Made by a program: the position numbers and the translations under genes
DNA from: a virus
IMG/VR virus record: IMGVR_UViG_3300046698_000540
Location: 36,370 to 100,369 of that record
Length of the DNA stretch: 64,000 nt
Direction: 5' to 3' (one strand)
Shown here: positions 2,016 to 55,121 of the stretch, in pieces
Layout: the number at the start of each line of letters is the position of its first letter
Numbering within the stretch: the stretch's first letter is position 1
Notes under the pieces: model-generated
Seen by the model: only the letters and a program-made list of their open reading frames with translations
Told to the model about the DNA's origin: nothing
The model's database searches: none

Positions 2016-3259
2016 ACCACAATGGTAATAACCAGCGTGTCACCAGGAGACGTGGAGCCCACCTGGGTAACGTCCACCCCTACCAAAGTGCCGGCGGGCA
2101 TTCTCGGGAAAGGAAATTCCATGCCGTAGGGAGAATTCGTCACAGACGGATCCGTGCTCTCGGCCGCGTAGCTGTTCAAATTGCTGTCTGTGATCTCCAG
2201 CGTGTGAGGAGTGGGTGTGCCTGCCAGAACTGTCCAAGTTGTTCCATTGTCCAATGAAATGCGCACATCAATCAGAATCGGGGATCCTGTGGGGGCACTT
2301 AAAACCTCTGCGTACAGTACTCTCGGTGTGGCATCGAAATTCAACCGATATTGCGTGTCTGCATCCGTGGCTACAGCCAAAGTGCCGGGAACCCTGAACC
2401 GGATCTCTCCACCTGAGCAAGTTCGGATTCCCAAACGAGTCTGAGTGACCAGGCCGTAGTAGGGAAAATCAGAGTACCCCAACCTGTTGGCCAGGCCTGC
2501 CAGCACAAAGGCGACCATGGCATTGGGTTGAATGCAGTCGTAAATGGGGGCAATCTGATTGGTTAGATCGAAAGCGCCCGGCTGCGTCTTGAAAATGTGG
2601 TGCCCCAGCGTCAACTTGAAAAAGTTCTTGCCTATTGCGTGGGCATTCAAATAGGAACCGAACGTCGCCCGATCGGGGAGCCCTTCCCCTGGATACACCC
2701 TCTGAATATTCACCACCCCGCCTGTGATGGGGTCACCTGCACTTCCTGGACCTGTGATCTGAACCGCTTCGTATCGGCGCCAACCCGCCGGGTTGACTCC
2801 ATATGGCTGCCCGTAGCTGGGAACCAAGTCCTCATCGTTAAACACCAAAAAATCGCCGACGTGAAACTGCCAACCATCCGCGATTGCCTGTGCAGAGTAC
2901 GAAAATCCGAGATCGCTGATCGAAGCCGCTCCTACAGCATAGGGACTTTCCATACCTATCACGGCCGTTAAGGTGCCGAAATATTCCGTGGCCAGTTCAT
3001 CCACGAACACCAGCACCCCGTGGAATTCAGTGATGCCGGCCATATTGAGGTTGTCGAACACCGAGACGTCGGAAAACTCCAACTGGCCGTAGGTCACCAA
3101 CGCAGGCGTGAAGATGGGATAGCCGGGCGCATCTGTGTCCAACGTGTTATCTGGTCCCACCACCTGGATGGATTGACTGGCCGATTTTTGCCCTGGAATC
3201 CCCGTCAGGTTCACAGGAACCAACCAGTACCACCAAGTCTCCTTTGTATGGACTGCCAT
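2012..3259 (-). CDS. Minor tail protein
   Basis: Track ORF 2012..3319; likely start MAVHTKETW at 3259 after AGGA; beta-rich, C-terminal DVTQVGSTSPGDTLVITI typical of phage tail proteins. Confidence 0.65.
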   Translation of the reverse strand: MAVHTKETWWYWLVPVNLTGIPGQKSASQSIQVVGPDNTLDTDAPGYPIFTPALVTYGQLEFSDVSVFDNLNMAGITEFHGVLVFVDELATEYFGTLTAVIGMESPYAVGAASISDLGFSYSAQAIADGWQFHVGDFLVFNDEDLVPSYGQPYGVNPAGWRRYEAVQITGPGSAGDPITGGVVNIQRVYPGEGLPDRATFGSYLNAHAIGKNFFKLTLGHHIFKTQPGAFDLTNQIAPIYDCIQPNAMVAFVLAGLANRLGYSDFPYYGLVTQTRLGIRTCSGGEIRFRVPGTLAVATDADTQYRLNFDATPRVLYAEVLSAPTGSPILIDVRISLDNGTTWTVLAGTPTPHTLEITDSNLNSYAAESTDPSVTNSPYGMEFPFPRMPAGTLVGVDVTQVGSTSPGDTLVITIVV

Positions 3260-3267
3260 CTGATTTC

Positions 3268-14196: not shown

Positions 14197-15192
14197 TTAA
14201 CCGATCAAGAAACTTTGGATGTACATAATCTGCAAGTCCAATTCTACGTCCACCACGGGGTACTCGCAACGATCCGTGCGAATCGCCAGGATGTCCACAG
14301 TTGCCACGCGGCCCCCCAAATCGGCATTGGTGCCCAAGCAGCTCTTGAGAGCCGCCACCCAAGTATCCACCGAAGCTGTGAATGTGGCCAGGTTCGTGTC
14401 CACTGCCAGAAGCCTTGTCGTGATGAACAGGGTCTTCTTGGTGTCCATCGAACCCTGGTACTGATACGGCTCGTTCGTGTCCTTGAACCAGATGCCGGGC
14501 GTGTAACGCGCGGAAATCTGCTCTGGGGAAATGGGCCAGTTCCGCGCTTTTTCCACCCATACCAAGCTGGGAATGGCCCTGAAAGCGTTGCCCAGTGCAT
14601 TGACGATCGTCTCCCTCCAAGGCTGCGTAAAAGGACCTGAAGGAAGCGCGCTTGTTGAGTCGGTGGAAAACGCGGCCGGAAGGGTCACTGTTGTGCCGGC
14701 GCCGGAGTCCACCACCTCGATATAGTCCGCCTCGTAGAGCACGGCAAACGCCGGGCTCTCATCGTCGGTGGATGTGTCTGCTTCGAGCCGGGTAATTCTT
14801 CCGCGGCGGGAAAGGCCGCCCCAGGTGGGATCGGAGACCAGGACGGCGCGGGTATCGTCTATCAGGTCATCAAGCTGCACCACGGCGGATTTTCCCGTGC
14901 GGCCCGTGTCTTGCCGCGTGGGGACTTTAACCTCGCCGGCGACGGTCATCTGGACCGTCTGCTGCAAGATGTCGGCCAGCATATGCCGGCCGCTTTCGAC
15001 CGGATCCACCAGAAAAAGGCCGGGAAACTTGTCGTCGGAGATGCCGAACATCGAACGGTTCACGCTGCGCACAGTCGAGAGAAAGATGTGGGCGCTCCCG
15101 GAGGCGAGATTCGGGACGGGATTGCCGGCCTTGATCTTGCCCAAGGCCGTCTCCACCGCCTCAATAATCAGCGTGCGCGTTGACTTCGGCAT
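14197..15192 (-). CDS. Tail terminator/completion protein, two tandem domains
   Basis: Likely start MPKSTRTLIIEAV at 15192; two similar halves (RTLIIEAVETAL..SDPTWGGL / RETIVNALGNAF..TNADLGGR). Confidence 0.6.
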   Translation of the reverse strand: MPKSTRTLIIEAVETALGKIKAGNPVPNLASGSAHIFLSTVRSVNRSMFGISDDKFPGLFLVDPVESGRHMLADILQQTVQMTVAGEVKVPTRQDTGRTGKSAVVQLDDLIDDTRAVLVSDPTWGGLSRRGRITRLEADTSTDDESPAFAVLYEADYIEVVDSGAGTTVTLPAAFSTDSTSALPSGPFTQPWRETIVNALGNAFRAIPSLVWVEKARNWPISPEQISARYTPGIWFKDTNEPYQYQGSMDTKKTLFITTRLLAVDTNLATFTASVDTWVAALKSCLGTNADLGGRVATVDILAIRTDRCEYPVVDVELDLQIMYIQSFLIG

Positions 15193-15359
15193 TTCAACAA
15201 TTCTCTGCGCAATTCCTCTGTGGTCATTGCCCGGTCCAGGTCCACGTAATAGTGGTGACCCAAAACGGCGTCTTCCACAGCGATCGCCAAAGGGCCTCCG
15301 TTGCTCAGAGCCTTGCGGACTTCTCCGACAAGAACATATTCCGAGGAGCTGGGTTCCAC
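15168..15359 (-). CDS. Hypothetical protein
   Basis: 63 aa, GTG preceded by AGGAG. Confidence 0.5.
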   Translation of the reverse strand: MEPSSSEYVLVGEVRKALSNGGPLAIAVEDAVLGHHYYVDLDRAMTTEELRRELLKCRSQRAR

Positions 15360-15368
15360 GTGCTTCTC

Positions 15369-15731
15369 CTACATCGAACGACCGTAGCCGGCATGGCCGC
15401 CAGGAAGCGCCGCGTGACCAAGGATGTTGAAATCCTGGCCGGACTTTTTTCCTTTTCCTTTTCCATGGTGGGGGGTCCTCCATCCTCTGAATCCACCACC
15501 TTTGGCACCTGAATTGTCTCTTTCCAATTCACTGATGTGCCCCAAGTGATGCAAGGATCCCCCGTATTTGCTTTTCTGGTACACATTACCTGTGGGCTTA
15601 TGCAAAAACTGGCCGCCGGGATGACTTTTACCCTGCTGCTCAAACTCATGAGCGGGTAACATCTCGCCGCCTTTTCCGTGACCGCTACCTTGGACGTGGT
15701 ACTCGTTTAATTTACCTCTTGGAAATCCCAT
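15369..15731 (-). CDS. His/Gly/Lys-rich protein with conserved C-terminal tag (copy 1)
   Basis: Ends KSGQDFNILGHAALPGGHAGYGRSM; GGAGG RBS upstream. Confidence 0.75.
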   Translation of the reverse strand: MGFPRGKLNEYHVQGSGHGKGGEMLPAHEFEQQGKSHPGGQFLHKPTGNVYQKSKYGGSLHHLGHISELERDNSGAKGGGFRGWRTPHHGKGKGKKSGQDFNILGHAALPGGHAGYGRSM

Positions 15732-15760
15732 TTCAAACCTCCAAAACCATTGTGTCGGCC
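15711..15760. repeat. 50-bp exact direct repeat, copy 1
   Basis: tttacctcttggaaatcccatttcaaacctccaaaaccattgtgtcggcc, identical to 17164..17213. Confidence 0.95.
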
Positions 15761-15762
15761 CG

Positions 15763-16275
15763 CTAGGCCGGTCCTACTACCGTCTTCTCCGAAGCCAGAG
15801 CCTCGGCAATTCTCTTCTTCAACCTGGTCAACTCCGTCTGCACTTCCCGGTCCATTGCCACCTTGTCCACGGACTTTTTGGCGCCAGGGTGCCTCACTCG
15901 CGGCCCAAAAAACTGATCTCCGCTGGCGAACTGGAAAGCCAGCACCTTGGCATGAACCGCCTGGATAGCGTGCCTTTTGGTCCCACTCTGCAACAGCGGC
16001 CAAATTTTCGCCGCTCGTGGGTCAATGTTCCGAATCAGGATCTTCAGCTTCGCGTGCGGCTCGTCCGTCTCCACTTCGCCTTTCCACCCGGCGCGCAATT
16101 TTCCCGGCGAAGGCTGGTTGGGATCCTTCGACACCGGCGTATATTTCCGGTAGAGCTTTTCCAGGATGGCTGAGGACTCGACGGCGACACCCTTCAGCCG
16201 GGTGAACTTCAGCATGTTCTCCATCCGTTTCAGAACGGCGTCCATGCTGACCGAGATTTTGATGCCGTCGATCAT
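15763..16275 (-). CDS. HK97 gp10-like neck/tail-completion protein
   Basis: TPV..PGKLRAGW and GTKRHAI..RVRHPG motifs; position. Confidence 0.7.
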   Translation of the reverse strand: MIDGIKISVSMDAVLKRMENMLKFTRLKGVAVESSAILEKLYRKYTPVSKDPNQPSPGKLRAGWKGEVETDEPHAKLKILIRNIDPRAAKIWPLLQSGTKRHAIQAVHAKVLAFQFASGDQFFGPRVRHPGAKKSVDKVAMDREVQTELTRLKKRIAEALASEKTVVGPA

Positions 16276-16276
16276 T

Positions 16277-16801
16277 TCAAACCTGCGCGATCGCGGAAAA
16301 ATCTTTGACTGAGTTCATGGCCGCCATGGCTGCCGGCGTAATGGCGTCCGTGTTGCCGCTCCACCACCAGTCCCAGGCCATGCTGGCGCGCATCGCAGCG
16401 ATAAAAGAAAAAGCCCGCTCCTTCACCGCCGCTTCTTCCAAACCGAAGAACGGGTTGCTGTGAAGAACATCGCCGTCAAGGTTGGCGTATTCCTCCACCG
16501 ATCCGAGCAGCCAGCACCTGAACGTCTTGCATGTGGGCGGTTTTACGCCTTGAATTTCACAGGAGTGCTTGCCTTCCGTTCGGCTCAAAAAAGCGCAGCG
16601 CCCGTGAGACCTGGTGTTAAGAACCGGCAGACTACCCGGCCTGTCTTGGGCTACCTCCACAGCCTCCACTCGGAGCAAAAAATCCGCTGTGGTGTTCAGG
16701 TGATCTGCTACCTCTTCCAAGTTGGGAACAGGAACCCCGTGCGCTACGTAGCAGCAGGCTCCGCACTGCTGGCAGAGTTCTTCGGTCCAGGGGAACTTCA
16801 T
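16277..16801 (-). CDS. YkgJ-family (CxxCxxCC) Cys-cluster protein
   Basis: CQQCGACC ... CAFL ... CEIQGVKPPTCKTF. Confidence 0.75.
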   Translation of the reverse strand: MKFPWTEELCQQCGACCYVAHGVPVPNLEEVADHLNTTADFLLRVEAVEVAQDRPGSLPVLNTRSHGRCAFLSRTEGKHSCEIQGVKPPTCKTFRCWLLGSVEEYANLDGDVLHSNPFFGLEEAAVKERAFSFIAAMRASMAWDWWWSGNTDAITPAAMAAMNSVKDFSAIAQV

Positions 16802-17184
16802 CGGCCGTAACCCGCATGCCCACCGGGAAGCCCCGCATGACCCAGGATGTTGAAGTCCTGACCGGATTTGCGACCAAATGGATTGTGCCCCGGCTTGCTG
16901 TGCGATTTGCCGGGATGTTTTTTGCCAAACTTGCCATGCTTGCCACCGGCGTTATGGTCGCCTGTTACCGGATCGAAGGTGCCTCCGTTCATAACATCAT
17001 TGGTATAGTAGTGACCTAACTCACCGTGAATGGTGTACCTCTCACCCGAGGAGTTTGGCCCAAAGTACTTTTCTGCTTCCTTATGCGAACCGAATGAGGG
17101 AGTCCCCATAGGCCCGTGCTTACTACCGCGTGGGACGTGGTACAAGTACTCGTTTAATTTACCTTTACCTCTTGGAAATCCCAT
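16798..17184 (-). CDS. His/Gly/Lys-rich protein with conserved C-terminal tag (copy 2)
   Basis: Starts MGFPRGK like copy 1; ends KSGQDFNILGHAGLPGGHAGYGR. Confidence 0.75.
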   Translation of the reverse strand: MGFPRGKGKLNEYLYHVPRGSKHGPMGTPSFGSHKEAEKYFGPNSSGERYTIHGELGHYYTNDVMNGGTFDPVTGDHNAGGKHGKFGKKHPGKSHSKPGHNPFGRKSGQDFNILGHAGLPGGHAGYGR

Positions 17185-17213
17185 TTCAAACCTCCAAAAC
17201 CATTGTGTCGGCC
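17164..17213. repeat. 50-bp exact direct repeat, copy 2
   Basis: Identical to 15711..15760; covers end of 17186..18100, RBS and start of tag gene. Confidence 0.95.
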
Positions 17214-18100
17214 AGCAAGTCGATGAAGTTCTCTACCTTCAGAGAAACTGGATCGCTCATCGCGGCCAGCATGTTCCAGTTGACCGCCGCCAGGATGAAG
17301 TACCACGTCCCGGTCGGCAGCAGAGTGTACTCCATCCACAATTCGTTCTTGGCCATCTGCGCTTCCCCTGTCGAAATCCAGGGGCCTGAAACGCGCTCGA
17401 AGGCCAGCGTGTCGGAGTAATAGTCGTAGATCGTGCGGATCACCTGCCAGGTTTCAAGAGGCGCCCGTGGATTCTGCGAAGCGTAGAAGCGAAGGTATGC
17501 GAGATCGCCTGTGTCCATCCGGGCCCAGTCCAAAACCAGGCGCCCGAAAGGAACGGCGATGTTCTGGAATCCTCCTGTGTCGGCCGGCGGATTCACCCTG
17601 GCGTTCGGATAGTAGAGGTAGGAAACCGACAGGAGTTTCGGCTTCGGAGGCGGCGGCGCAATCTGCACGGGAACCTTGGCGTGAATAAGCCTACTGTCCC
17701 GGACCAGGTTGCCAATCACGATGTCCCCGCTCACATTGTCTTGTGCGGCGATGCGATCGCGCTGGTAGTCGTACTCGTCCCGCAGCTCGTTAGCGGCGGT
17801 AATGAGCATCTGTGAATTGCCCGTCTTGTCTGCGGAAAAATTCGCGCCTACGGAAACTCGGGTATCTAGAGCATATTCCAGCGCCTTATCCCGGGCGATG
17901 CGGACCTTCGCCAGCAGCAGGATGAGCTGTTCTTCCTCCACGGGAACTGTTGCCCACGTGTAAGACTTGTTGTGCTGGCGAAGGGCCTCGAACAGGGCCT
18001 CGTTCAGGAGAGCATTGTCGAAACGCCGCTCTCCCGTGAGCCAGGAGATGTCTCCAAGCTGGCCCCGCATCGTTTCCCGTAATGCTGAAATAGTGGCCAC
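17186..18100 (-). CDS. Putative head-tail adaptor
   Basis: 304 aa; N-terminus (LRETMRGQLGD...FDNALLNEAL) typical of connectors; position after capsid genes. Confidence 0.55.
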   Translation of the reverse strand: MATISALRETMRGQLGDISWLTGERRFDNALLNEALFEALRQHNKSYTWATVPVEEEQLILLLAKVRIARDKALEYALDTRVSVGANFSADKTGNSQMLITAANELRDEYDYQRDRIAAQDNVSGDIVIGNLVRDSRLIHAKVPVQIAPPPPKPKLLSVSYLYYPNARVNPPADTGGFQNIAVPFGRLVLDWARMDTGDLAYLRFYASQNPRAPLETWQVIRTIYDYYSDTLAFERVSGPWISTGEAQMAKNELWMEYTLLPTGTWYFILAAVNWNMLAAMSDPVSLKVENFIDLLADTMVLEV

Positions 18101-18112
18101 TGCACCATCCGA

Positions 18113-18709
18113 TTATTCGTAGTACGGGTAAGCCAGTTCCTCCCGTATCAAGCCGTCGCGAACACTCTTCGGCACCTCGCACACCACGTCCTTCGTGAAG
18201 TAGTAGCGGTACGGCCCAATGAACCTGCTGCCGGTGAACCTGGGCCTCACCTTCACTACCTTTTCCTCCGAAACCAGAGCCTCATCGATGGGGCCAATCT
18301 GGATCTTCGTGCGAAGGTCCGCCCTGGAAGCCGGCCCGACCGGGGGAGGAGCTTGTGTGCTTGGATCGGTGAACACCGGCTTGGGCGCCGGCGGAGGGTC
18401 GTTGTAAAGGTTGGACGTTGTCGTAAGGCCCTGCGGAGGAAGCGGGATGTCGTTTGCCCGCGCGCCTTCGGCGAGCTGATCCATAACCGAACTGTTGAAA
18501 GCGGCCGGGGGGACTTCTCCCTTGAACGGCTTGCCTTCCTCGGTCTTTCCCGTGATTTCCCGCCCTCTTACAGAGTGTGACGTATCGGGTTCAGAATTCG
18601 TGTTTCTCGTGCCAGCAGGCAGCGGAACTTCAATCATTCGTTTCGGCTGCGGAAGTTTTGTCCGCTCCGGAACTGCCTCTGGAATATCCAGCGTTGTGTT
18701 CTTTGCCAT
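18113..18709 (-). CDS. Hypothetical head-associated protein
   Basis: Likely start MAKNTT after GAGGAAAGG; Pro-rich linker plus short C-terminal domain. Confidence 0.55.
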   Translation of the reverse strand: MAKNTTLDIPEAVPERTKLPQPKRMIEVPLPAGTRNTNSEPDTSHSVRGREITGKTEEGKPFKGEVPPAAFNSSVMDQLAEGARANDIPLPPQGLTTTSNLYNDPPPAPKPVFTDPSTQAPPPVGPASRADLRTKIQIGPIDEALVSEEKVVKVRPRFTGSRFIGPYRYYFTKDVVCEVPKSVRDGLIREELAYPYYE

Positions 18710-18790
18710 GGTTTTACCTTTCCTCGTTGCAATCACCGCCCCTTTCGGGCGATACCTGATTGTACCGAAGCAGTGTTCAAGTTTGCGCTG

Positions 18791-19249
18791 TTACGCGCGG
18801 ATGCGAATGCGCACGGCCATCTGAGGCGTAGCCACTCCGCCAGCGGAATGCTCGACGGAGAAGGTCAACACATCGTTCAGTTTGGGTGGCGCCTTCGTAG
18901 CGTCCAGTGTGAGAGTGAACGGAACGTACGCAGCCTGTGACACGGAGGCCGTGGTCAGGGAAGCCAGAACATCGGTCCCTGTGCCATCGCCCTTCCGGTT
19001 ATACAGCTTGAACGTAACGTAGTTCGATCCATTTGCGGCGATCGCAGCCTGCGCAATGACCTCAACCGAATCGATCTGAATGGGATCCGCGGCGGCGCCG
19101 CTTCCCTTCAGCATTTTGTCAAGGACCGTTTCCGCATCCGTGCCCGCGGTTCCCCGCGCGGCGATGGAATACTGCTTTTCTATGAAGTTGCGAACGGCCC
19201 CCTTATCGACAGGAACCGTTCCGACATAACCGAGTGCACCTATAGGCAT
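18791..19249 (-). CDS. Putative capsid decoration protein
   Basis: 152 aa beta-rich, directly after major capsid gene, AAGGAG RBS. Confidence 0.55.
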   Translation of the reverse strand: MPIGALGYVGTVPVDKGAVRNFIEKQYSIAARGTAGTDAETVLDKMLKGSGAAADPIQIDSVEVIAQAAIAANGSNYVTFKLYNRKGDGTGTDVLASLTTASVSQAAYVPFTLTLDATKAPPKLNDVLTFSVEHSAGGVATPQMAVRIRIRA

Positions 19250-19294
19250 TTTTCTCCTTTCATTTCGACCAGACTTTGACCAAACGCCCTGGCG

Positions 19295-20236
19295 CTACGC
19301 CGACACGATCGGCAGAATGTTGTCGCCGTTGATGATCTTCGACCCCATGATCGAATACCACCCAAGCGAATGCTTGCGGCCGAAGTCCTCGACGCCGTTG
19401 TCCCGCATCTCGACCGGAAGCCCGACCGCCCATGCGTAACTGTTGTCGCCCATCAGGACCGCTTTGTACAGATTGACGGAGCCTGCGCCGGCCGTAACCA
19501 GGGTGGCATCGTAAGCCGGATCGGTGGAGAGAACCGCGCCATTGTTCATGTGCCCGGTGCCCACAAAACGAACATCGTCGAAGCGGCCGAGTTCGCCGCG
19601 GAAGAGCTGTTCGGTGGCGCCGTAAGTCGAAGCCGACACCCATTCCGGATCGCGCTTCAGGCTGGAAGCCTGATGCGGGTGAACGAAACAGGCGAAAAAG
19701 TCCCCATTGAACTTGGGAACGTTGAGGGTGTACAGACGCTCGACACCGGCGCGCAGGTCGTCGATGCGCAACGGCTGGGAAATGCTGGACAGCGGCCAGG
19801 CGCCGCCCGAGCCGATGGAGTTTGCCGATGCCATCACAGCATTGCGCAACAGCAAGTCGGTGACACGGGCGTAGTCGCGCCCCAACTGGTACGCGGCCTC
19901 GGTCAACACATCGTCGTATGCGGACTGGAGCAACAGTTCCGAAATGGCAATTGCGTTGCCATACTCGGTCACCGTTACAAAGACCTGCGAGGCGGTCATG
20001 GCCTGCGTGGTCATGTTGACGCCTTCGGTGAGGGGTCCGCCGAGCGCCAGGTTCTCGTAGATCGTGAAATAAATGGTCAGGCCGGGCTGCCGGGTCAGTT
20101 CGTCCTTGATGACGGCGAACTGCTCGAACCGCATGGCCGGAAGCGCGCGGTGCTGAATTTCGCGCGAATAGACGTTCAGAATTGCTTGCGGCAAACCGGT
20201 TACCACACCGGCTGTCGCCGTACCCGTAAGTGCCAT
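19295..20236 (-). CDS. Major capsid protein (N4-gp56-like, HK97 fold)
   Basis: EYGNAI, FVHPHQ..LKRDPEW, GELGRFDDVRFV, DFGRKHSLGWY motifs. Confidence 0.9.
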   Translation of the reverse strand: MALTGTATAGVVTGLPQAILNVYSREIQHRALPAMRFEQFAVIKDELTRQPGLTIYFTIYENLALGGPLTEGVNMTTQAMTASQVFVTVTEYGNAIAISELLLQSAYDDVLTEAAYQLGRDYARVTDLLLRNAVMASANSIGSGGAWPLSSISQPLRIDDLRAGVERLYTLNVPKFNGDFFACFVHPHQASSLKRDPEWVSASTYGATEQLFRGELGRFDDVRFVGTGHMNNGAVLSTDPAYDATLVTAGAGSVNLYKAVLMGDNSYAWAVGLPVEMRDNGVEDFGRKHSLGWYSIMGSKIINGDNILPIVSA

Positions 20237-20269
20237 TGACGTAGCTCCTTAAGCAAAGTCCTGCGCCTT

Positions 20270-21013
20270 TCAGCGCGGCTGCTTCATTGGGAGCCCTGCA
20301 TCCTGGAAAATCTTCGCTTTGATATCTTTCTTTTTCTGATCCCACTCTTGAGGGGACATGTCCCGCCAAGCTTCTAACCCGCCTGCTGTTACGGCTGCGT
20401 CACCTGAGGGTGTGCCCGGAAATACCGGTTTTGGCAGAGCTTCACGAAGTGGCGCCCCAAGTTCCTTTCTTACGCGCTCAGCTTCTCTGTCGGCGATTTC
20501 CTTGTACTTCGCCTTCGCGCGCTCGAAACTTGCCTGTAGCTCCTCGGGTGTGTTGCCGGCCACCATTTCCGGGATCAGCTCTTGTGTACTCTGGAGGAGG
20601 CCCGTGCGCTGCGCCTCAAGCCGATCTCTGCGGCGCTGCTCCTCATTTTCCTTGCGCTGATTGTCCAGCGCGTCGTCCATTGCCTTACTGAACTGGTCCG
20701 TCATGCTGGAAACCTGGCCCGTGAGGGCCGCGATTTGTTGTTCCAGCGTCTGAGCTTTCCGGCTTCCATCCTGCGCGGTCTCGAGGGCCGCGCGGGCGTC
20801 CGCCAGTTCCCGCTCCTTTTTCTGCAGGTCGGCTTTGTGACGTTCGATCTCGGGATAAAGCTTGGCCTTCTCATCCCGTCTGGCTTCTGCAAGCCTGCGT
20901 TCTACCTCTTCCGCCGAGATGCCCCCATTACCGGCTGCTGCCTGATGCGGCGGGGCTCCTGCGGGTGATCCTGGTTGTTCTCCGGCTGCTGGTGTGACCT
21001 GTGATGTTGCCAT
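20270..21013 (-). CDS. Capsid scaffolding protein
   Basis: Coiled coil; EKAKLYPEIE, LIPEMVAGNTPEELQASFERAK, DMSPQEW motifs; between portal and capsid. Confidence 0.8.
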   Translation of the reverse strand: MATSQVTPAAGEQPGSPAGAPPHQAAAGNGGISAEEVERRLAEARRDEKAKLYPEIERHKADLQKKERELADARAALETAQDGSRKAQTLEQQIAALTGQVSSMTDQFSKAMDDALDNQRKENEEQRRRDRLEAQRTGLLQSTQELIPEMVAGNTPEELQASFERAKAKYKEIADREAERVRKELGAPLREALPKPVFPGTPSGDAAVTAGGLEAWRDMSPQEWDQKKKDIKAKIFQDAGLPMKQPR

Positions 21014-21053
21014 GGTTTCCTTATCCTTCGTGAAAATTCTTCACCTAGCTGAA

Positions 21054-21239
21054 CTACGCCAGGCGGGGATCCACTGCCACCCGAACCAGGGCGTCCGGAT
21101 CGAGCGAGTTGGTGGTGGCCCGCGGAGTGGCGTCCGGGCGATACCCGGTCTTCCGCTGACTCTTGTTGGCGCCCGCTTCCACCCCGATGCCCCGTTCGTC
21201 ATTCACGCGGCCCGGCTGAGGGTTAATCGCTTTCTGCAT
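21054..21239 (-). CDS. Small hypothetical protein
   Basis: 61 aa with AAGGAGG RBS. Confidence 0.6.
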   Translation of the reverse strand: MQKAINPQPGRVNDERGIGVEAGANKSQRKTGYRPDATPRATTNSLDPDALVRVAVDPRLA

Positions 21240-21297
21240 GTTGCCTCCTTACTGTTCATACACCCTTTCGGGTCCAAAACACAACTTCATGCTACCA

Positions 21298-22872
21298 CTA
21301 CACTCCCGAGGCCTGCGCTCCTGCCTGTTTTTCGGCTTTGGCTGAGGACTCCTCGGCTGCCGCCGCCTCTGTCTTTGGCGGCTTTTTTCCGGGCGGCTTG
21401 GGACCTCCCGCACCGCCTGCTCCACCACTCACACCAGCTTCCTGAAGATTCACGGCGTGGTTCAACTGCAACTCGTTTTCTTGCTCTGTTGCCTTTTGAA
21501 GCTCTTCGTCCACTTCGTCCAAAACCTTTTGTGCGTCGCTCACATCCAACTCGGCTGGCGCGATGTCATCGTGGATCAATTCCCGCAAGATCATGGCCCG
21601 GGAAAGCAGTTTCATCTGCTGCATGACGGTCAGCTCGTTCAACCGAAGCTGCTTGTCGCGCGGCAGGGGGTCCGGCCACTTCACGCCGCTGTAGTAAGGC
21701 AGGGGACGGCCATTGGCCTTGTAGTCTCCCAAAATTTCCCGGACGCGGAGAATTTGGTAGTTCACGTACTGGATGCCCTTCGTATACGTGAGCCGCTTCT
21801 TCTTCATGTGCTCCAGGATCGGAGCGAACTGGATGGCCAGGGCAACGCCAGACGTATTCGAGATCGGAACGTCGCCCCCAAAGGCAACCTTCGGCATGGA
21901 GCCAAGCTGGAACAACGTGTCCTTCAGATTCATCAGGTACTCGCGTGCCGCCGCCAAATCGCCCTGCAGCTCCAGGTTCTCCACCCTGGCGTCCTTCGGC
22001 AGACCACTCCACACCTTACGGGCGCCTTTTTGCAGCGTGGAAGCCTTCGCGCCATAAATCACGGTCACCGGCGCCGCGTGGTAGTTGATGATGTCGCCCA
22101 AGTCGGTGGTCTTCTCGTTGAACTCCCGATTCGAGTCCACCACCTGGCCGATGTCCGACATGCCGAAAAATTCCGTGCCCACCATCAGGTTCGGAATATG
22201 CGTGAACGGAATTTCCCCCAAAAGGTTCGGCTTGGAATTGCTGATGGGCTGGCCGTCCCGCAGTTCCCAAACCTCATCCTTCGTCCAATACTGCCCCGCG
22301 ACGTAGGTCCGAACCCTGACGCGGCCGAAAGCATTGCTCACCACTTCCGATTCGGGCCACTGCACCAGCAAACCGGAAAATCCGCGGTCGGAATTTCTGA
22401 AAAAAATCGGGAAAACAAATTCGCTTGGAAAGACGGTCAACTTTACGCGATCGCCAAAGACCGCATCGTTGTCGATCCCGACGTTTACCCAACAGTCGCC
22501 TGTCACCCCTCCGACTTGGCCCATCTGGAAACCAAGCTGCCCAATGTGGTTTTTTTCCCACTCCTCGTTCAACAGGTCTTCGGCTGCCTGATAGGCGCTG
22601 CCGCGAAAATTCGCGTGGATCGTGAACTGATTGCCGAACAGATATTGCGAGTGCTTGTCCACGAAAAGCTGCACGAAGTTCGCGGTGGTCACAGGCTCGC
22701 CGGCCTCGGGAACATAGTTCCAGTGGTTGCCCTTGTAGAAGTTCCAGAGCCTGCCGTATTGCAGAATGCGGGCGGCGTTCTGATGCCAGATGTCTATTTC
22801 GTGCCCCGACGTGATCGGGTAGTCCCGGTTCACGCGATTCAGCGTGAACCTGGTCATGTCGCCCATGCTCAT
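21298..22872 (-). CDS. Portal protein (SPP1 gp6-like)
   Basis: WNFYKGNHW, GVTGDCWV, NLLGEIPFTHIPN, GMSDI, NTSGVAL motifs. Confidence 0.9.
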   Translation of the reverse strand: MSMGDMTRFTLNRVNRDYPITSGHEIDIWHQNAARILQYGRLWNFYKGNHWNYVPEAGEPVTTANFVQLFVDKHSQYLFGNQFTIHANFRGSAYQAAEDLLNEEWEKNHIGQLGFQMGQVGGVTGDCWVNVGIDNDAVFGDRVKLTVFPSEFVFPIFFRNSDRGFSGLLVQWPESEVVSNAFGRVRVRTYVAGQYWTKDEVWELRDGQPISNSKPNLLGEIPFTHIPNLMVGTEFFGMSDIGQVVDSNREFNEKTTDLGDIINYHAAPVTVIYGAKASTLQKGARKVWSGLPKDARVENLELQGDLAAAREYLMNLKDTLFQLGSMPKVAFGGDVPISNTSGVALAIQFAPILEHMKKKRLTYTKGIQYVNYQILRVREILGDYKANGRPLPYYSGVKWPDPLPRDKQLRLNELTVMQQMKLLSRAMILRELIHDDIAPAELDVSDAQKVLDEVDEELQKATEQENELQLNHAVNLQEAGVSGGAGGAGGPKPPGKKPPKTEAAAAEESSAKAEKQAGAQASGV

Positions 22873-22881
22873 ATTAGAGCC

Positions 22882-23301
22882 TCACTGTCCGTATCCTGCG
22901 TGCCCGCCTGGAAGTCCTGCGTGACCTAAGACGTTGAAATCCTGACCAGACTTGTGCGTTCTGCTCCCTCGCTCGCCTATGACAACTGGCAGTTTTGCCA
23001 TTCCCATCTCGCGTCCTATAGCCAGACGGTGGTGCCCGTCTTCTATATGGTAGTGTCCTTCACCCTCGTGGCGCAGAATGATAGGTGCCATACCGTGCTT
23101 GCGTACGTGCTCCTTGAACTTTTCCAAATAGGGGCGCTCGAATTTCTGAATGGAAGCGACCCTACCTGCATCCTGCAACTTCATCAGGTGTGCCTTGGTG
23201 GCCATAAAGCCCGAGGCACCTTGAGACTCGTGGATTGCTCGAGCAGCTCTGTGCGCTTCGCGCCGCTCGTGATCATCCCGTGCTTCTTCATCAACCGTCA
23301 T
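22882..23301 (-). CDS. ParB/sulfiredoxin-like domain protein with conserved C-terminal tag (copy 3)
   Basis: PIIL..YHIEDGHHRLA..LPVVI; ends KSGQDFNVLGHAGLPGGHAGYGQ; start via ATGA overlap. Confidence 0.75.
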   Translation of the reverse strand: MTVDEEARDDHERREAHRAARAIHESQGASGFMATKAHLMKLQDAGRVASIQKFERPYLEKFKEHVRKHGMAPIILRHEGEGHYHIEDGHHRLAIGREMGMAKLPVVIGERGSRTHKSGQDFNVLGHAGLPGGHAGYGQ

Positions 23302-24536
23302 TTCCGCACTGTCTCCGTGAGGATAGCTTGCTCGATCTGACTCCAGACCGCTTCCCATCGGTAATGCTGGCGGTAGAACGTCTTAGCCCGAAGAACGTGG
23401 TTCGACTCCATCGTGTGCACGATGATCTTCGCCATGTCCCGGAAAAAAGCCGCCTTGTCTGGCATCTCCACCTGCTGCTGGTAGCTGCCGAACGTGAAAT
23501 GCAGAGCGCTCCCTGGGCCGGCGATTTCCTGGAACATGGGCAGATTTTGGTTCAGCACCAAAAGCTGTCCACACAGAGCCGCCTCTGCGGGCGCGTATCC
23601 AAAAGATTCTGACTTCGATGGGCAAATAAAAAGGTTGCCTATCTGCATCAAATCGTGCACCACGGCCTGTGAAACTCCAACCTCAAACTCGGGATCGAAC
23701 CGGCTGGTGAAAATCACTTCCCGGTCAGTGAGCCCCTGGTCGAACGCGTGGTTGATCAGAAACTTCACGTCGGCCCGGCGCTCATCCGTGTTGCACCAAG
23801 CGTTGCAGAAAATCAGGCGCACGCTTTTTCCGTGGCGTTTCAGTTGGCCGAACAACTCGATCACTTCCTTGGCGCCTTTTGGCTCGTAGCGATCGGTGGG
23901 GATCGGGTACACCTGAATGATGTCCGCCGCCAGCACGTCGTACTCGGTCACCAAACGCTCCGCCAGATCGGTGCGGAACATGTACTCGCGGGGATCTTTT
24001 GAATGCGGAATTATCAGCACGTTCTCCTGCCAGGTCCGAAAATGTTCCGCGCATCGAATGCGGTCCTGGTGGTTCGGATAAACGAGCTTCCCGTTGGGTG
24101 GCACCCGCCAGTAATCGCGCATGCCTCCACCCGGAACGGAATGCACCCAGTGAAAATGCGGAAAAGGCCAGAACGTAGCCGCTTCCTGCATTCCCAGGTT
24201 CAGCGGCAAATTCCAGCCCGTGAATAGAATGTCGTGCGAGAACAGGGCGTTCAGATCGCCGAGGCTGCCGGCCATCCACCGGCAAGCTGCTCTGCCCACG
24301 TCGATATGCTCCATGGGCAGTTCCGAAAGGCTTTTGTAATCCTTCTTGGCCCAAACAGGCAGCCCGGCGCGGATCTCAACCCAATCCGGCGCCTCGGGCC
24401 ATTTGAAATCTTCAAGCCCAATCAATACGGGCGTGTGACCAGCGTGGTGAATCATCCGCAACTGCCCGAGCACCACAGCGGTTAAGCTGTAGTGATCCAA
24501 CATTGCGGAGAAGGCCGTCAAAAGTCCAATTTTCAT
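23298..24536 (-). CDS. Glycosyltransferase, GT-B (GT4-like)
   Basis: NLFICPSKSESFGYAPAEAALCG = E-x7-E signature. Confidence 0.8.
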   Translation of the reverse strand: MKIGLLTAFSAMLDHYSLTAVVLGQLRMIHHAGHTPVLIGLEDFKWPEAPDWVEIRAGLPVWAKKDYKSLSELPMEHIDVGRAACRWMAGSLGDLNALFSHDILFTGWNLPLNLGMQEAATFWPFPHFHWVHSVPGGGMRDYWRVPPNGKLVYPNHQDRIRCAEHFRTWQENVLIIPHSKDPREYMFRTDLAERLVTEYDVLAADIIQVYPIPTDRYEPKGAKEVIELFGQLKRHGKSVRLIFCNAWCNTDERRADVKFLINHAFDQGLTDREVIFTSRFDPEFEVGVSQAVVHDLMQIGNLFICPSKSESFGYAPAEAALCGQLLVLNQNLPMFQEIAGPGSALHFTFGSYQQQVEMPDKAAFFRDMAKIIVHTMESNHVLRAKTFYRQHYRWEAVWSQIEQAILTETVRK

Positions 24537-24605
24537 GCCTCTCCAATCGAATGCGGGCGGCGCTTTTTTGGGGCGCCGCCTACACGGAGGTTAGCAGGTT
24601 TTCGG

Positions 24606-25544
24606 TCAGATGACCGGGCCATGGTAGCTTCGCCTGCGAACCGACGACGCTACTTCTTGCTGAGGTTCCTCGACCAGCGGCCCATCTTCAACGTAGGGGC
24701 CCACCAGAGCCATCAGGATCTGGGTATTCACATTGCCCAACCCCAACAGCTCGAACAGCTTGCCGTAGTTGATCTGCCACGGCTCATTCTCCGGAACAGG
24801 ACCGCCAACAACAACGGCTTCCGGATAGCGCTCGTAAACTTCTTGCGCGAGAAGACCCACGTATACTTTCTTTTCGAGGTCGGCCTTGAAATAGAACGCG
24901 TACACGTTCAAGCCGAACACCTGTGCGATCTTGGACAGGATCTCCTTCAACCGGGCATCCGAGGTCGTGGTAGTCGTAGTGGTTGAAGTCGTAGTGGTCG
25001 AAGTCGTAGTGGTCGTGCTGGTCGAAGTGGTGCTGGAACTGGTCGTGCTCGTCAACCCGGTGAACGTGTTGACGAAAACCGCCAGCCAACTGCCGCCGCG
25101 GACATAGTTGTCAACCAGCTTTTTCGCCAGCCATTGGGAAATGTCCGGCGAAGGAATCATCGCGTATGCTCTTTCCACGATGTCCCTTTGGCGCACGATG
25201 CACGTGTAGGTGACACCGCCGATGGTCCCCGTGATCTGCACCCGGTCGTAGCCTGCCACCAGGGAGTAGCACGTCGCCTTGTTGCCAAATGTCACCGCAA
25301 CCTGCGTCGTCGAACGCGGGTGTGTGATGTTGACCGTTCGGCTTGCCACGAGATTGTTGATGAGCTGGTCCATGCGGGCCCAGTCATCCAAGAACGCTTG
25401 CGCCACGCTGGTACCCGTCAGTTCCGTGGGGTTGAAAGGCTTGGTCCATTCCATCAGATGCGAATTGCCGTCAACCGTACCCGACAAGAGCCAGGAGCCT
25501 TCGGCATCGAAAGGAACAGCCGCTGTAATAATCACTGTAGACAT
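24606..25544 (-). CDS. Virion fibre-like protein with poly-Thr tract and C-terminal self-cleaving chaperone (peptidase S74-like)
   Basis: Start MSTVIIT after GAGGAGG; ~30-aa T/S tract then SDARLK...GLLAQEV...PEAV...INYGKL. Confidence 0.75.
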   Translation of the reverse strand: MSTVIITAAVPFDAEGSWLLSGTVDGNSHLMEWTKPFNPTELTGTSVAQAFLDDWARMDQLINNLVASRTVNITHPRSTTQVAVTFGNKATCYSLVAGYDRVQITGTIGGVTYTCIVRQRDIVERAYAMIPSPDISQWLAKKLVDNYVRGGSWLAVFVNTFTGLTSTTSSSTTSTSTTTTTSTTTTSTTTTTTTSDARLKEILSKIAQVFGLNVYAFYFKADLEKKVYVGLLAQEVYERYPEAVVVGGPVPENEPWQINYGKLFELLGLGNVNTQILMALVGPYVEDGPLVEEPQQEVASSVRRRSYHGPVI

Positions 25545-25581
25545 GGTTTTCTGCTTACCTCCTCTTTTCGTCAATGAAGCG

Positions 25582-25785
25582 CTATCGTGTTTCGGTGTCC
25601 ACGCGGGTACGCTCCTGGCTCGCGCGGTTCTGATCGCCATGCCCTCCCGGAGGGGGACCTTTCCGCGGACTTCCTACTCGGGAGCCTGGAGGAACGCGGG
25701 GATTTCCGGGCGGCGTAGAAAAACCGCGGCCGGAGGTATTGTCTTGCGAGAATGCGCCCTCGCCGGGGCGCGCTTTGACTGCCAT
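25582..25785 (-). CDS. Small Pro/Gly-rich hypothetical protein
   Basis: 67 aa, GGAGG RBS, packed in operon. Confidence 0.5.
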   Translation of the reverse strand: MAVKARPGEGAFSQDNTSGRGFSTPPGNPRVPPGSRVGSPRKGPPPGGHGDQNRASQERTRVDTETR

Positions 25786-25788
25786 AGC

Positions 25789-25986
25789 TTATTCCTCCTT
25801 GGCGCCTTCGTGCTCTTCCTTGGCGGCCTGCTTGTGCTTGTGGTGCTGGGCCAGGTGGTGCTTGTGCTTCGCCGAGTGGTGCTTCTCTTCGTCCCACTCT
25901 CCCTGTTTGGCCGCTTCGTCCGCCAGGCCTTTGTGATGCTCCGCGAGCTTGCCGTGCATATCTGCTTCGTCACAATGAGAACACAT
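25789..25986 (-). CDS. Small His-rich protein
   Basis: 65 aa, GAGGAGG RBS, CxxC plus many His. Confidence 0.6.
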   Translation of the reverse strand: MCSHCDEADMHGKLAEHHKGLADEAAKQGEWDEEKHHSAKHKHHLAQHHKHKQAAKEEHEGAKEE

Positions 25987-25995
25987 GGTTCCTCC

Positions 25996-26457
25996 TCAGA
26001 AACTTCCGGTATACCCAGACAGTGGGCCGGTCAGGCTCTGCTTCGCCAGCAGGGCGAGGATCTGTGCCACTCGCTGCGTGAAGAGCGGCGTCGTCATCAG
26101 CGACCAGTCCAGGAAGCTCACCGTGCTCATGGTGATCGTGAAGGACGTGCTGTACACCGTGGCCGTGATCGACACCTGACCGTAGCCCGGATTCGTAACC
26201 GGCGATGCACCAAATGTCACCGTTGGTAAATCCGGCAGATTGGAAACCGTAACCACCTGATTCGCCAACTGCGCGATCGCCGCAAGGTAGGCCGCGATTT
26301 CGGCCAAGACCATGGCGGCCAGTTTGGACGCCGGCATGGAGATTTGATCGAGGGCCACGTTGTCTTTGGCGTACAAATAATTGGTCACCCCGCCGCCCGT
26401 TGCTTTCACGTAGAGCCGGTTCAGATCCGGGTCCACGCTGAGACTCGTTACTGTCAT
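25996..26457 (-). CDS. Putative virion protein, paralog of the 24606..25544 N-terminal region
   Basis: VTFG..GYGQVSITAT aligns with VTFG..GYDRVQITGT; AGGAG RBS. Confidence 0.55.
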   Translation of the reverse strand: MTVTSLSVDPDLNRLYVKATGGGVTNYLYAKDNVALDQISMPASKLAAMVLAEIAAYLAAIAQLANQVVTVSNLPDLPTVTFGASPVTNPGYGQVSITATVYSTSFTITMSTVSFLDWSLMTTPLFTQRVAQILALLAKQSLTGPLSGYTGSF

Positions 26458-26466
26458 AAAACGCTC

Positions 26467-26796
26467 CTATTGACTGATTTTTCCGCGCGCCTCGGCGCGG
26501 CGTTGCTGAAACTCGCTGCCCCGGTACTCTTCCCGGCCGTCGTGCATCTCGTGGGTCGCCGCCGGCGCATGGCCCGGTTCGCCAAGCACGAAGTGATCCT
26601 GGAAGGAAATAGCCGTGCCCACCTTGGCCAGACCTTGAACAGCACCTCTCACAGACCACTTGTGCGGGGTTTTATCCAGATGTCCAGGGGCTTTGTGCTT
26701 GTGCGTTTCGACCAGACCACAATCCGTGCACACCCTTGGTTCGGGGCTGCCCGTCATGAAATTTGCGAACTTTTGACCTTTGCTTCGAATGCTCAC
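26467..26796 (-). CDS. His-rich hypothetical protein
   Basis: 109 aa, CTDC motif, overlaps upstream stop. Confidence 0.55.
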   Translation of the reverse strand: MSIRSKGQKFANFMTGSPEPRVCTDCGLVETHKHKAPGHLDKTPHKWSVRGAVQGLAKVGTAISFQDHFVLGEPGHAPAATHEMHDGREEYRGSEFQQRRAEARGKISQ

Positions 26797-27092
26797 ATGG
26801 ACCTCCCGTAGCCGGCGTGCCCGCCCGGCAACGCGGCATGGCCCAGAATGTTGAAGTCTTGACCGGACCGCTCTAAACTGGATTTGGCGCCTGTTCTGGC
26901 AAACTTCAACTGGGAATGCGTTTGCCTGTGCGGGCCGAACCGCGGTTCTGCGCCGGCCTTTTTCGCCTTAGCACTCCAGTTCTTTCCGTGGTGTGCCTTC
27001 AGCATTTTCTTGTGCTCTGGGGTGGCTCGACCTTGTGCATGAGCCTCTTCCGCTTCCGTTAAAAAATCCGCTGTTCTGGACATGGCCCTCAC
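26793..27092 (-). CDS. Basic protein with conserved C-terminal tag (copy 4)
   Basis: Ends RSGQDFNILGHAALPGGHAGYGRSM. Confidence 0.75.
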   Translation of the reverse strand: MRAMSRTADFLTEAEEAHAQGRATPEHKKMLKAHHGKNWSAKAKKAGAEPRFGPHRQTHSQLKFARTGAKSSLERSGQDFNILGHAALPGGHAGYGRSM

Positions 27093-28909
27093 AATCTATG
27101 AAACGGCATTTCACGATCCGACGCAAGTCCTCGCTGGTGGCGGCCCTTGCCGGGATTCAGGAAGAAGTTGTCGTGCTCCTCGATCTCCCTGTTCTCATCG
27201 GCAACAAAGTCGCACGCCAAACAGCCAAGCATCAAGCTGGAACAGAAGTCCTTATAGGAGGTCTCGTCCCCGGCCTCCACGGCCAAATAAGCGCCACGGT
27301 AGACCTTTTGCAGATTCGTCATCTGCGAGACGAAATTGCGCTGCTTCTGGCCCTTTCGGGCTCGTTCGCTGTTGGGGTATTCGAATCGTTCGTTCTGCAG
27401 GTCCGCTAGAAGGCGTGAGTAACCGTCGTGGTTGGTCGATTGGTCCGCAATGAACCGTATCAGCTCCAGCTCGTTCGCGGCAATTTGCGCCTGGAAATAA
27501 TTCTCCAGCATATCCGCCATTGCCTCGCCGACGCCCGTGGCGTCGATCATGATCCGCTTCAATCCCCGGTAGTTGACCAAGAAGTCCCGGATCTGGCTGA
27601 ACTGCGCGACATAATCGTCGCCAGTGATCTGCAGCCAGTTCAAAACCCGCTTGTGGCACCGGAAGTCTCCTTCGCCTACATAACCACCTTTAGTGTAGTC
27701 CGGTTGCACCACCGTTACAACCGTGGAGCTTTCCGCCTTCCCAACGTCGATTCCCACATAAATCACGTTCACCGGATCGTAGGTCACCGGCGAATAATTT
27801 TTCCCCATCAGGTCGAACAGAGTGGGCTCGACGAACATGCCCCTTTCGAGAATCCAGTGGAGGCGGTACGACAGCCTGAACTCGTCGGAGTCGTACCCCA
27901 ACTCGGCCATCTTTTTCTGGATGTGAATTCGATACCACTGGTTCGCTCTCGCGGCCACTTCAAAGTCGTACTGGAAATGCAGCTTGAGGGTCTGATCTTG
28001 CTGCTTGACGTCCTCCCGAACATTCTGCTGGCACTTGTCGTAGAAGGCGGACCTGGTCATATTGCAGGTCCCGATCTGTACGAAGCTGGCGGCCGTGGAG
28101 GCTGCCATGGGCACGATCGACTTGCGCCACACGTACGCGTTGATGTCCTGCGCCTCTTCTCCAATAATCAGGTGCCAGCTTGCGCCTTCGATCTTGGCCT
28201 GGAGGGCGGAGGAATGGCATTTGGCATACGACCCATTGGGCAATTCCGCTCTGGCGGAATCTTTTTTGTCGTCCATCTCGATCCCTATTTCGTCATCCGC
28301 CAGCACTTCATGGGCGTGCTCCGAATGCAGGTAGTGCAGGATCTTGTCGAACAACAGGCCTGACTGCTCGTGGGATGGGGCGTAAATTCCGACCCAAAAG
28401 CCATTCTTGAATTTCTGAATGCGGGGATCCGCGAACACGGGCGGCGAATTTTCCTTATCCGGATTCGTAGTGATCTGCGCCAGCAGGGGAAGCATTACCA
28501 TCATGCCGTCCACGATGACGGCCACCACAGTGGATTTCCCAGACTGGCGCGAAAACAGACCCGTGACATCTTCCGAATCCGACCGCAGCACCGAAAGAAT
28601 CACGCGCTGCCCAAATTCCCGCTGGTACGCGTGAAGCTGGATGTCAGCCATCATTTCGCTGAACGCCAGAATCGCTTTAGCCAGCTTCCGGAGCTGAACC
28701 TTGGACAGGTGCTTGATCTGCTGCTGGCGCAAGTCCTCGCCGGCAAGCGCATCTCTTACCTGGCCGGAAAGTTTTTCCTCGGAACGAAGGCCCGGCTTTT
28801 CATCGGTAACTACCGTACGGGCCTCCAGGGGTGAGCGTGTAAGCGATACGTCCAGCACACGTGCGGAAAATAGCCGAACACCACGCCGGCGTCCAACAAG
28901 GAAAGCCAC
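27089..28909 (-). CDS. terL: Terminase large subunit (start uncertain)
   Basis: Walker A SRQSGKS, Walker B IIGEEAQD, nuclease VGIDVGK and IDATGVG. Confidence 0.92.
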   Translation of the reverse strand: MAFLVGRRRGVRLFSARVLDVSLTRSPLEARTVVTDEKPGLRSEEKLSGQVRDALAGEDLRQQQIKHLSKVQLRKLAKAILAFSEMMADIQLHAYQREFGQRVILSVLRSDSEDVTGLFSRQSGKSTVVAVIVDGMMVMLPLLAQITTNPDKENSPPVFADPRIQKFKNGFWVGIYAPSHEQSGLLFDKILHYLHSEHAHEVLADDEIGIEMDDKKDSARAELPNGSYAKCHSSALQAKIEGASWHLIIGEEAQDINAYVWRKSIVPMAASTAASFVQIGTCNMTRSAFYDKCQQNVREDVKQQDQTLKLHFQYDFEVAARANQWYRIHIQKKMAELGYDSDEFRLSYRLHWILERGMFVEPTLFDLMGKNYSPVTYDPVNVIYVGIDVGKAESSTVVTVVQPDYTKGGYVGEGDFRCHKRVLNWLQITGDDYVAQFSQIRDFLVNYRGLKRIMIDATGVGEAMADMLENYFQAQIAANELELIRFIADQSTNHDGYSRLLADLQNERFEYPNSERARKGQKQRNFVSQMTNLQKVYRGAYLAVEAGDETSYKDFCSSLMLGCLACDFVADENREIEEHDNFFLNPGKGRHQRGLASDREMPFHRL

Positions 28910-52188: not shown

Positions 52189-52221
52189 CTTCGTTGTTCT
52201 CCTTCGGTGTACGATATTCTT

Positions 52222-52683
52222 ATGAGTCGTGCAACAGCTTCACCAGCAGCAAAGACCCCCAAAGGGGGCCTTTCCTTGCTCCAATGTATCAGAAACGACG
52301 CCCATGTTTCCTTGAAGATCCGCCTCCGAGCCTTCGAGTTCACCTGGAATTGCCCTTCCGTCCAGCAACCAGACTTCGGCGTGGTCGAGATCGAATACAC
52401 ACCTGGCAAGCGCATAGTCGAGACCAAGAGCCTGAAGTTCTACCTTCAGAAGTATCGCTACCTGAACGCCTTCAACGAAGAACTGTCTGTTCGGATTCTG
52501 AACGATTTTGTCTATTACGTCCGACCTTTGGATGTTCGCGTGACAATGCGACAGAACTCCCGCGGCGGCATTGAAACGACCTGCGAAGCGTCCTGGAGGG
52601 ACGGGGATCCGTTCAGCTACACCCCGAAGCGGACTTTTCAGGGAGGCTGGGCAATGCTTCCTCCGGGGCCGCCGGAAGCTTGA
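52222..52683 (+). CDS. queF: preQ0 nitrile reductase (preQ1 synthase)
   Basis: EFTWNCP..QPDFG (catalytic Cys/Asp), QueF motif ETKSLKFYL, RGGI. Confidence 0.85.
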   Translation: MSRATASPAAKTPKGGLSLLQCIRNDAHVSLKIRLRAFEFTWNCPSVQQPDFGVVEIEYTPGKRIVETKSLKFYLQKYRYLNAFNEELSVRILNDFVYYVRPLDVRVTMRQNSRGGIETTCEASWRDGDPFSYTPKRTFQGGWAMLPPGPPEA

Positions 52684-55098: not shown

Positions 55099-55121
55099 AG
55101 CTTTGTGACCTGCTCTTTCTT

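Follow-up and report, generated by a model that had tools for sequence, protein, structure and literature searches.

A near-invariant C-terminal peptide on interchangeable late proteins of an uncultured soil phage: a candidate virion-loading tag

The virus record IMGVR_UViG_3300046698_000540 (100,369 bp, with an estimated completeness of 80%) derives from an uncultured, myovirus-like phage of soil or peat. The 64,000-nucleotide (nt) stretch of this record that was analyzed here, referred to as the window, has the same gene order as Bacillus phage BCD7 (terminase, portal, scaffold, capsid, neck, sheath-like protein, tape measure), its nearest cultured relative, with a capsid protein 45% identical to the BCD7 homologue. 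Among the head and packaging genes are four small open reading frames (ORFs), designated a to d, that end in the same peptide, SGQDFN[IV]LGHA[AG]LPGGHAGYG, followed by R, Q or RSM and then by the stop codon (Table 1), so that the tag comprises 21 residues plus one to three more. The coordinates of these ORFs, their location on the minus strand and the motif itself bear out an original prediction made from the nucleotide sequence alone; the count of four, on the other hand, proved incomplete. The genome also contains a fifth gene (genome positions 3189–3479, outside the window and next to QueE) that has only the terminal core of the tag, ..PGGHAGYGR, and an ORF in which a decayed copy is internal. 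A six-frame motif scan of the window revealed no further full copy. Five of the six copies in the genome fall within the 12-kb block that extends from terminase to neck, where the starts and stops of the tagged genes overlap or abut the terminase gene, a glycosyltransferase (GT4) gene, the portal gene and the genes for a 304-amino-acid (aa) protein and a small cysteine-cluster (CxxCxxCC) protein; promoter-like and terminator-like sites are not enriched in this block. The ORFs of BCD7 do not share a C-terminal peptide, with local scores of 42 at most (BLOSUM62, last 25 residues).

By the same measure, the tagged ORFs score 115–133 against one another, compared to ~60 or less for the best unrelated pair of ORFs in the genome, a difference that excludes chance resemblance. 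A hidden Markov model (HMM) of the tag gives 57–60 bits for the four window copies, 43 bits for the fifth gene and no more than 11 bits for all other ORFs. At the nucleotide level, 22 of the 63 positions vary among the four copies, and 18 of these 22 are third codon positions; in pairwise comparisons, 10–13 of the 21 codons differ synonymously and zero to two non-synonymously, in agreement with the earlier claim that it is the peptide that is conserved. Since synonymous sites are nearly saturated whereas the peptide is fixed, selection must act on the peptide, and a DNA- or RNA-level element is ruled out on the same grounds. The tag peptide is, then, under purifying selection.

The bodies of the four proteins had been described as largely unrelated, and this holds for most of them (gene d, for example, is unrelated to gene b outside the tag) but not for genes a and b, which have the first ~25 residues in common. 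Because, in addition, the 30 nt upstream of these two genes are identical, they must have arisen by duplication, although their middle parts are unrelated. Gene a has no match in Pfam, PHROGs or NCBIfam and is present as an identical copy in a metagenomic locus (L019). A 63-aa ORF (15168–15359) between gene a and the gene for a 308-aa protein is 98% conserved in another locus, L013, and is probably a real gene. Gene b starts 1 nt after the 304-aa gene, and its stop codon overlaps the start of the CxxCxxCC gene; the ESM Atlas model of its product has a mean predicted local distance difference test score (pLDDT) of 0.39, and in a word-based search with gene b, five proteins (P0003–P0007) resembled it in the tag only. 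Gene c, the start of which overlaps the GT4 stop, ends 9 nt before the portal start and in the same frame. The ParB-like domain originally recognized in its product is upheld, albeit marginally (PF02195, residues 65–129, 27.2 bits against a cut-off of 26.3), and no homologue of gene c was found beyond its own cluster. A second ParB protein, of 609 aa and with ParB_N and helix-turn-helix domains, is encoded outside the window (genome 24068–25897) in the replication module, next to genes for a member of the uracil-DNA glycosylase family, a primase, a DnaB-like helicase and a family A DNA polymerase. Gene d overlaps the terminase stop and the start of the next gene by 4 nt each; in the related locus L022, its N-terminal body is replaced and the last ~58 residues are retained.

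The ORF with the decayed internal copy can be compared with the corresponding site of L022 (L022:708–1275), a relative that is 96–99% identical. Two genes are present there, one encoding a 70-aa protein that ends in an intact tag and the other a 117-aa protein that carries the decayed stretch and the C-terminal extension. As these genes are separate in L022, the window ORF is best explained as a fusion at the tag. The joint lies exactly within the tag-coding stretch, a direct footprint of recombination at this site. Akin internal-tag forms were found in locus L039 and protein P0041.

Table 1. Tagged genes, neighboring late genes and the 7-deazaguanine cluster, in window coordinates
Feature	Position	Strand	Basis or remark
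Tagged gene a, 120 aa, His/Lys/Gly-rich	15369..15731	-	tag at 15372-15443
Tagged gene b, 128 aa, basic, disordered	16798..17184	-	tag at 16801-16866
Tagged gene c, 139 aa, ParB N-terminal-like domain plus tag	22882..23301 (or to 23358, upstream start)	-	tag at 22885-22950
Tagged gene d, 99 aa, basic	26793..27092	-	tag at 26796-26867
ORF with decayed internal tag-like stretch (SFQDHFVLGEPGHAP...) and C-terminal extension ..EYRGSEF..	26467..26796	-	comparison with L022
Small CxxCxxCC (YkgJ-type) cysteine-cluster protein, coupled to gene b	16277..16801	-	Pfam PF03692, E 2e-7
Major capsid protein, HK97-type family	19295..20236	-	PHROG 1357, E 2e-50; Pfam Phage_capsid_4
Scaffolding-like protein between portal and capsid genes	20270..21013	-	position, coiled-coil-like composition, alignment with same-position BCD7 gene
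Portal protein, SPP1 Gp6-like	21298..22872	-	Pfam PF05133, E 2e-21; PHROG 64
GT4 glycosyltransferase, directly upstream of the variable tagged-gene slot	23298..24536	-	Pfam Glycos_transf_1
Terminase large subunit, opens the late structural block	27089..28909	-	PHROG 2, E 9e-15
DpdA/TGT-like	50375-51448		
QueC-like	51448-52188		
GNAT/Fem-like	52613-53647		unusual addition to cluster
ATP-grasp	53644-55098		unusual addition to cluster
284-aa CxxCxxCC protein (second CxxCxxCC)	55122-55976		unusual addition to cluster
GTP cyclohydrolase-like (FolE)	56430-56951		

The motif HMM search that had been suggested together with the original prediction proved productive. A profile built from 14 tag ends and searched against 1.84 billion cluster representatives yielded, at an E-value of 1e-3 or better, 41 matches, of which 40 are real clusters, all of 56–196 aa and known from metagenomes only. 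Two modules can be recognized in the tag, namely [KR]SGQDxx[IV]LG, which occurs twice in four proteins (P0016, P0018, P0020 and P0040), and the core [PKR]GGHAGYG[RQK], in which the GGH.G.G columns are invariant across a 36-member alignment. In 38 of the 40 clusters, 0–8 residues separate the core from the C-terminus. The bodies are mostly disordered and strongly basic, with an isoelectric point above 9 in 37 of the 40 (median, 10.1) and 12% lysine, 11% glycine and 6% histidine. A DUF6496 body (PF20106) is present in five tagged proteins, four of the 36 scanned and one in L039; the Pfam model covers the N-terminal body and not the tag, and the four tagged proteins of the window do not belong to DUF6496. 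One HicA-like match fell below threshold. A further type of cargo is an acidic tagged protein of ~120 aa with a DxD-type start, for which the AlphaFold2 model (pLDDT 59) matched only HAD phosphatases in Foldseek, the best hit being the phosphatase domain of T4 Pnkp (E 4e-3, a weak match). These HAD-like proteins, like the fifth gene of the genome, possess the core module only, and two of their genes are located before the portal gene of relatives (L003:6239–6628, encoding P0023, and L020:5695–6072, encoding P0021). AlphaFold2 pLDDT values are 25–35 before and within the tag. Given that the tag is near-terminal on unrelated bodies, this is the pattern expected of a localization signal and not of a domain.

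Scans of the tagged proteins with Pfam, PHROGs and NCBIfam gave no match that covers the tag, and the tag profile had no significant match among PDB sequences, a search that covers chains of at least 20 residues. Likewise, nothing was found for the tag by tblastn of gene b against 50,697 phage records or in the ESM Atlas by features and structure, and the full-text literature on the core motif and on DUF6496 does not mention it. With regard to prophages, a pattern scan of 185,579 species genomes returned chance matches devoid of the core and no true copy, and in IMG/VR the tag is confined to a single lineage (L003 and L005, with identical translations at the tagged gene). The tag thus defines a peptide family that lacks annotation and is very strongly constrained.

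All recovered contigs with the tag form one clade (L003/L005/G001, L012, L013, L017, L020 and L022), in which identity to the window is 93–97% for the capsid protein, 76–96% for the portal, ~83% for the terminase, 75–98% for GT4 and 56–62% for the scaffold. Against this shared background the tagged genes come and go. The slot occupied in the window by the ParB-like gene c holds an HAD-like tagged gene in L003 and L020, with another beside it in the latter; the slot of gene a holds a different body in L013; an additional tagged gene is inserted between the 207-aa and 304-aa genes in L012; and a DUF6496 tagged gene follows the terminase in G001. Gained, lost and swapped among conserved structural genes, the tagged genes are therefore accessory cassettes that encode cargo and not core parts of the virion, and the sequence comparisons indicate that these cassettes are exchanged through recombination, the endpoint of which often lies within the tag. 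Conservation of the tag (~95–100%) tracks that of the capsid protein and not that of the scaffold. Two diverged tags, P0025 and P0036, seem to belong with portals that are 88% and 62% identical to that of the window, and this pairing with diverged portals implies that the tag spans a wider clade and drifts, with the core remaining fixed.

Short peptides that send unrelated proteins into the head of a myovirus have been described, namely the capsid targeting sequence of T4 IPIII and the N-terminal signal of P1 DarB (PMC9024508, its reference 48), and the head cargo of these phages, which is delivered to the host, includes basic proteins and anti-host enzymes (PMC9024508). Unlike those signals, which are N-terminal and, in T4, cut by the prohead protease, the present tag is C-terminal, longer and composed of two parts, is common to at least six genes per genome and has no sequence similarity to them. 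A different parallel is offered by Family 1 encapsulins, the targeting peptides of which are C-terminal and Gly-rich, follow a flexible linker, contain hydrophobic-Gly-hydrophobic anchors and a terminal K or R, and bind the luminal side of a shell with the HK97 fold (PMC7925596). The phage tag likewise sits at the C-terminus behind a flexible, disordered linker, and the phage shell is also HK97-type; compared with the GSL/LGI-type motif (PMC7925596), the I-L-G and a terminal R, K or Q are present and GSL is absent. The tag is, however, about twice as long, and the phage shell is a DNA-filled capsid. The likeness to encapsulin peptides is a matter of style only. Small, basic, late proteins that are encoded among structural genes, carried in the virion and ejected are also known from other phages, such as T7 gp6.7 and gp7.3 and the P22 ejection proteins. 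Each of those is fixed and they are not known to have a common tag, in contrast to the interchangeable cassettes described here, which a single tag unites.

On the basis of these data, the explanation that we favor, tentatively and at rather less than an even chance, is that the tag is a modular signal for loading accessory, probably ejected, proteins into the virion or the capsid interior. This was the first choice of the original prediction, and it is the best supported of the readings considered, on circumstantial evidence: the late, translationally coupled position of the genes in the head-neck operon, their cassette-like presence and absence, the combination of basic disordered bodies and small enzymes as cargo, the near-terminal location of the tag and a degree of conservation that matches that of the capsid protein. 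Under this scenario, a two-part address tag, usually connected through a disordered basic body, would be attached to interchangeable accessory proteins that are made alongside head and neck proteins. During assembly, the tag would dock its cargo onto a highly conserved component of the virion, with the inside of the HK97-type capsid shell as the likeliest site, ahead of the portal or a core. The docked proteins would thereby be packaged and would probably be ejected together with the DNA into the host; the basic bodies would also neutralize the charge of the DNA. Binding to a virion protein, the identity of the receptor, packaging and ejection are what we infer from the observations above; the capsid protein is the best candidate receptor only in that it is as conserved as the tag. 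The more specific proposition that a portable C-terminal peptide binds the inner face of the capsid in the manner of encapsulin cargo, with injected effectors (nuclease-like, phosphatase-like and DNA-coating) swapped by recombination, is possible but doubtful. Models of the Peptidase_S78, ClpP and S49 families had no match in the genome, estimated to be 80% complete, and a search for S77 lacked a working control; with no prohead protease family detected, an uncleaved, permanently attached tag is plausible.

Several observations weigh against virion loading. The tag lies 45–48 residues from the end in two of the 40 clusters, and one tagged gene, a neighbor of QueE and a fibre-like gene, does not belong to the structural block. 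Known shell-targeting peptides do not need to be as invariant as GGHAGYG, and this strictness could instead reflect an enzyme active site or His/Tyr chemistry. A likeness noticed by eye between the tag and the scaffold C-terminus (I[LF]xxAGLP, conserved in the clade) was not sustained, as the tag HMM gives it no score. Finally, gene c and the portal gene, which share a reading frame and are separated by a single TGA, were folded as a read-through product using 21 aligned sequences; the portal core was modeled at pLDDT 75–90, the tag at ~25, and no docking was seen. Docking on the portal thus found no support; as the model is a monomer built on a shallow alignment, it is otherwise uninformative and counts as weak evidence against portal docking only.

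Further features of the genome deserve mention. Window positions 24606–25640, adjoining GT4 among the head genes, encode a fibre-like protein that has an S74 intramolecular-chaperone domain and a Thr/Ser tract of ~30 residues, a gene pair that makes O-glycosylation of the virion plausible. A cluster for 7-deazaguanine modification of DNA occupies positions 50375–56951 (Table 1), with a QueE-like ORF, recognized by eye from the Cys motif of radical S-adenosylmethionine enzymes, far off at genome 3569–4360 outside the window; with its unusual additions, the cluster may encode a further-derivatized deazaguanine base. A 127-bp exact repeat links genome positions 1–127 to window positions 60294–60420, at the junction of two ORFs of ~1100 aa (57088–60456 and 60453–63749); it may reflect paralogy of these fibre-like genes with the 727-aa ORF that opens the contig or, alternatively, an effect of assembly or of terminal repeats.

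The original prediction had also offered an alternative, namely that the tag is a core peptide recognized by modifying enzymes of the phage, and this idea has lost ground. The ATP-grasp, GNAT-like and second CxxCxxCC proteins, the candidate tag enzymes in question, are encoded beside FolE, QueC-like and DpdA-like genes, which makes DNA modification their likelier role. The tagged genes have neither a conserved leader nor an adjoining enzyme for ribosomally synthesized and post-translationally modified peptides (RiPPs), and a RiPP precursor was rejected because the N-terminal portions, folded enzymes among them, are unrelated to one another, and because the ATP-grasp and GNAT-like genes are 25 kb away. 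What is left of the idea is that GT4 or the small CxxCxxCC protein recognizes the tag and that modification of the invariant core with its His, Tyr and Gly residues (glycosylation, methylation or other) is the point, rather than docking. GT4 immediately precedes a tagged gene in four contigs (the window, L003, L020 and L022), the CxxCxxCC gene overlaps the gene b stop, and the core is very strictly conserved, as enzyme substrates often are; furthermore, the CxxCxxCC family includes FliB, which methylates lysines of flagellin, and the tagged bodies are rich in lysine. The adjacency is, however, explained by conserved synteny, with other tagged genes residing in other slots, and the Thr/Ser tract of the neighboring S74-chaperone protein is a more obvious substrate for GT4. 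Modification as the purpose of the tag is consequently unlikely, although it is the least unlikely of the rivals. Next to it, and unlikely as well, we place self-association, in which the tag would act as a condensate sticker through which tagged proteins co-assemble with one another and with DNA into a single body (an inner body, for instance, or a layer that coats the DNA) and need no dedicated structural receptor. Basic, disordered bodies, a G-Y-G type core and the presence of the motif twice in the four proteins mentioned above, which suits multivalency, are compatible with such a sticker, but the strong near-terminal bias and the ordered, conserved half-motifs resemble a specific docking peptide, and the HAD-like cargos are acidic.

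The binding partner could also be a conserved host factor (replisome, ribosome, protease or envelope), with the tag serving as a short linear motif for recruitment or as a turnover mark. Peptides that bind host hubs usually take the form of short C-terminal motifs carried by otherwise unrelated proteins, and the cargo includes nucleic-acid enzymes; yet the genes are late cassettes of the structural block and not early genes, the motif is, by eye, unlike clamp-binding, ssrA-like or sorting signals and lacks a transmembrane segment, and the species genomes scanned contain no copy, all of which makes a host target improbable. The genetic evidence for virion loading would serve equally well for an anchor to the exterior of the capsid or neck, where the tagged proteins would decorate the particle by strand addition as a basic, sticky coat, and the head module has several unassigned small proteins (152, 207 and 304 aa). 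Since nuclease-like, phosphatase-like and DNA-binding-like basic cargos make more sense internally, and no known decoration protein has such a tag, we regard an external location as more improbable still. Nascent-chain arrest peptides are close in length to the ~22-residue tag, and the overlap or abutment of stops with the start of the next gene, together with conservation at the level of the peptide, would be in line with ribosome arrest or slow termination in which the peptide, from within the exit tunnel, tunes translation of the coupled downstream structural gene in cis. We give this very little credence, because the tag is found on real enzymes, doubled in some proteins and internal in others, with 0–8 residues between the core and the stop, and the downstream genes are unrelated. 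Comparison by eye with lasso, double-glycine, clamp-binding, ubiquitin-like and RTX patterns showed that none fits, and a sortase, exosortase or rhombosortase signal was dismissed on account of the 0–3 residues that follow the core in the window copies, the lack of a hydrophobic segment and the lack of an NCBIfam match.

If virion loading is the function of the tag, it would be the first multi-cargo C-terminal loading signal in a tailed phage, and would reveal a cassette-wise exchange of injected accessory proteins among phages. It would also tie phage head assembly to encapsulin cargo loading, and would supply a 22-residue handle for packaging foreign proteins in capsids; binding to the inner face of the capsid, in particular, would provide a living functional link between phage capsids and encapsulins and a ready-made tag for protein delivery. 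Even without an assigned function, the tag groups together a set of proteins from the 'dark matter' of phage genomes.

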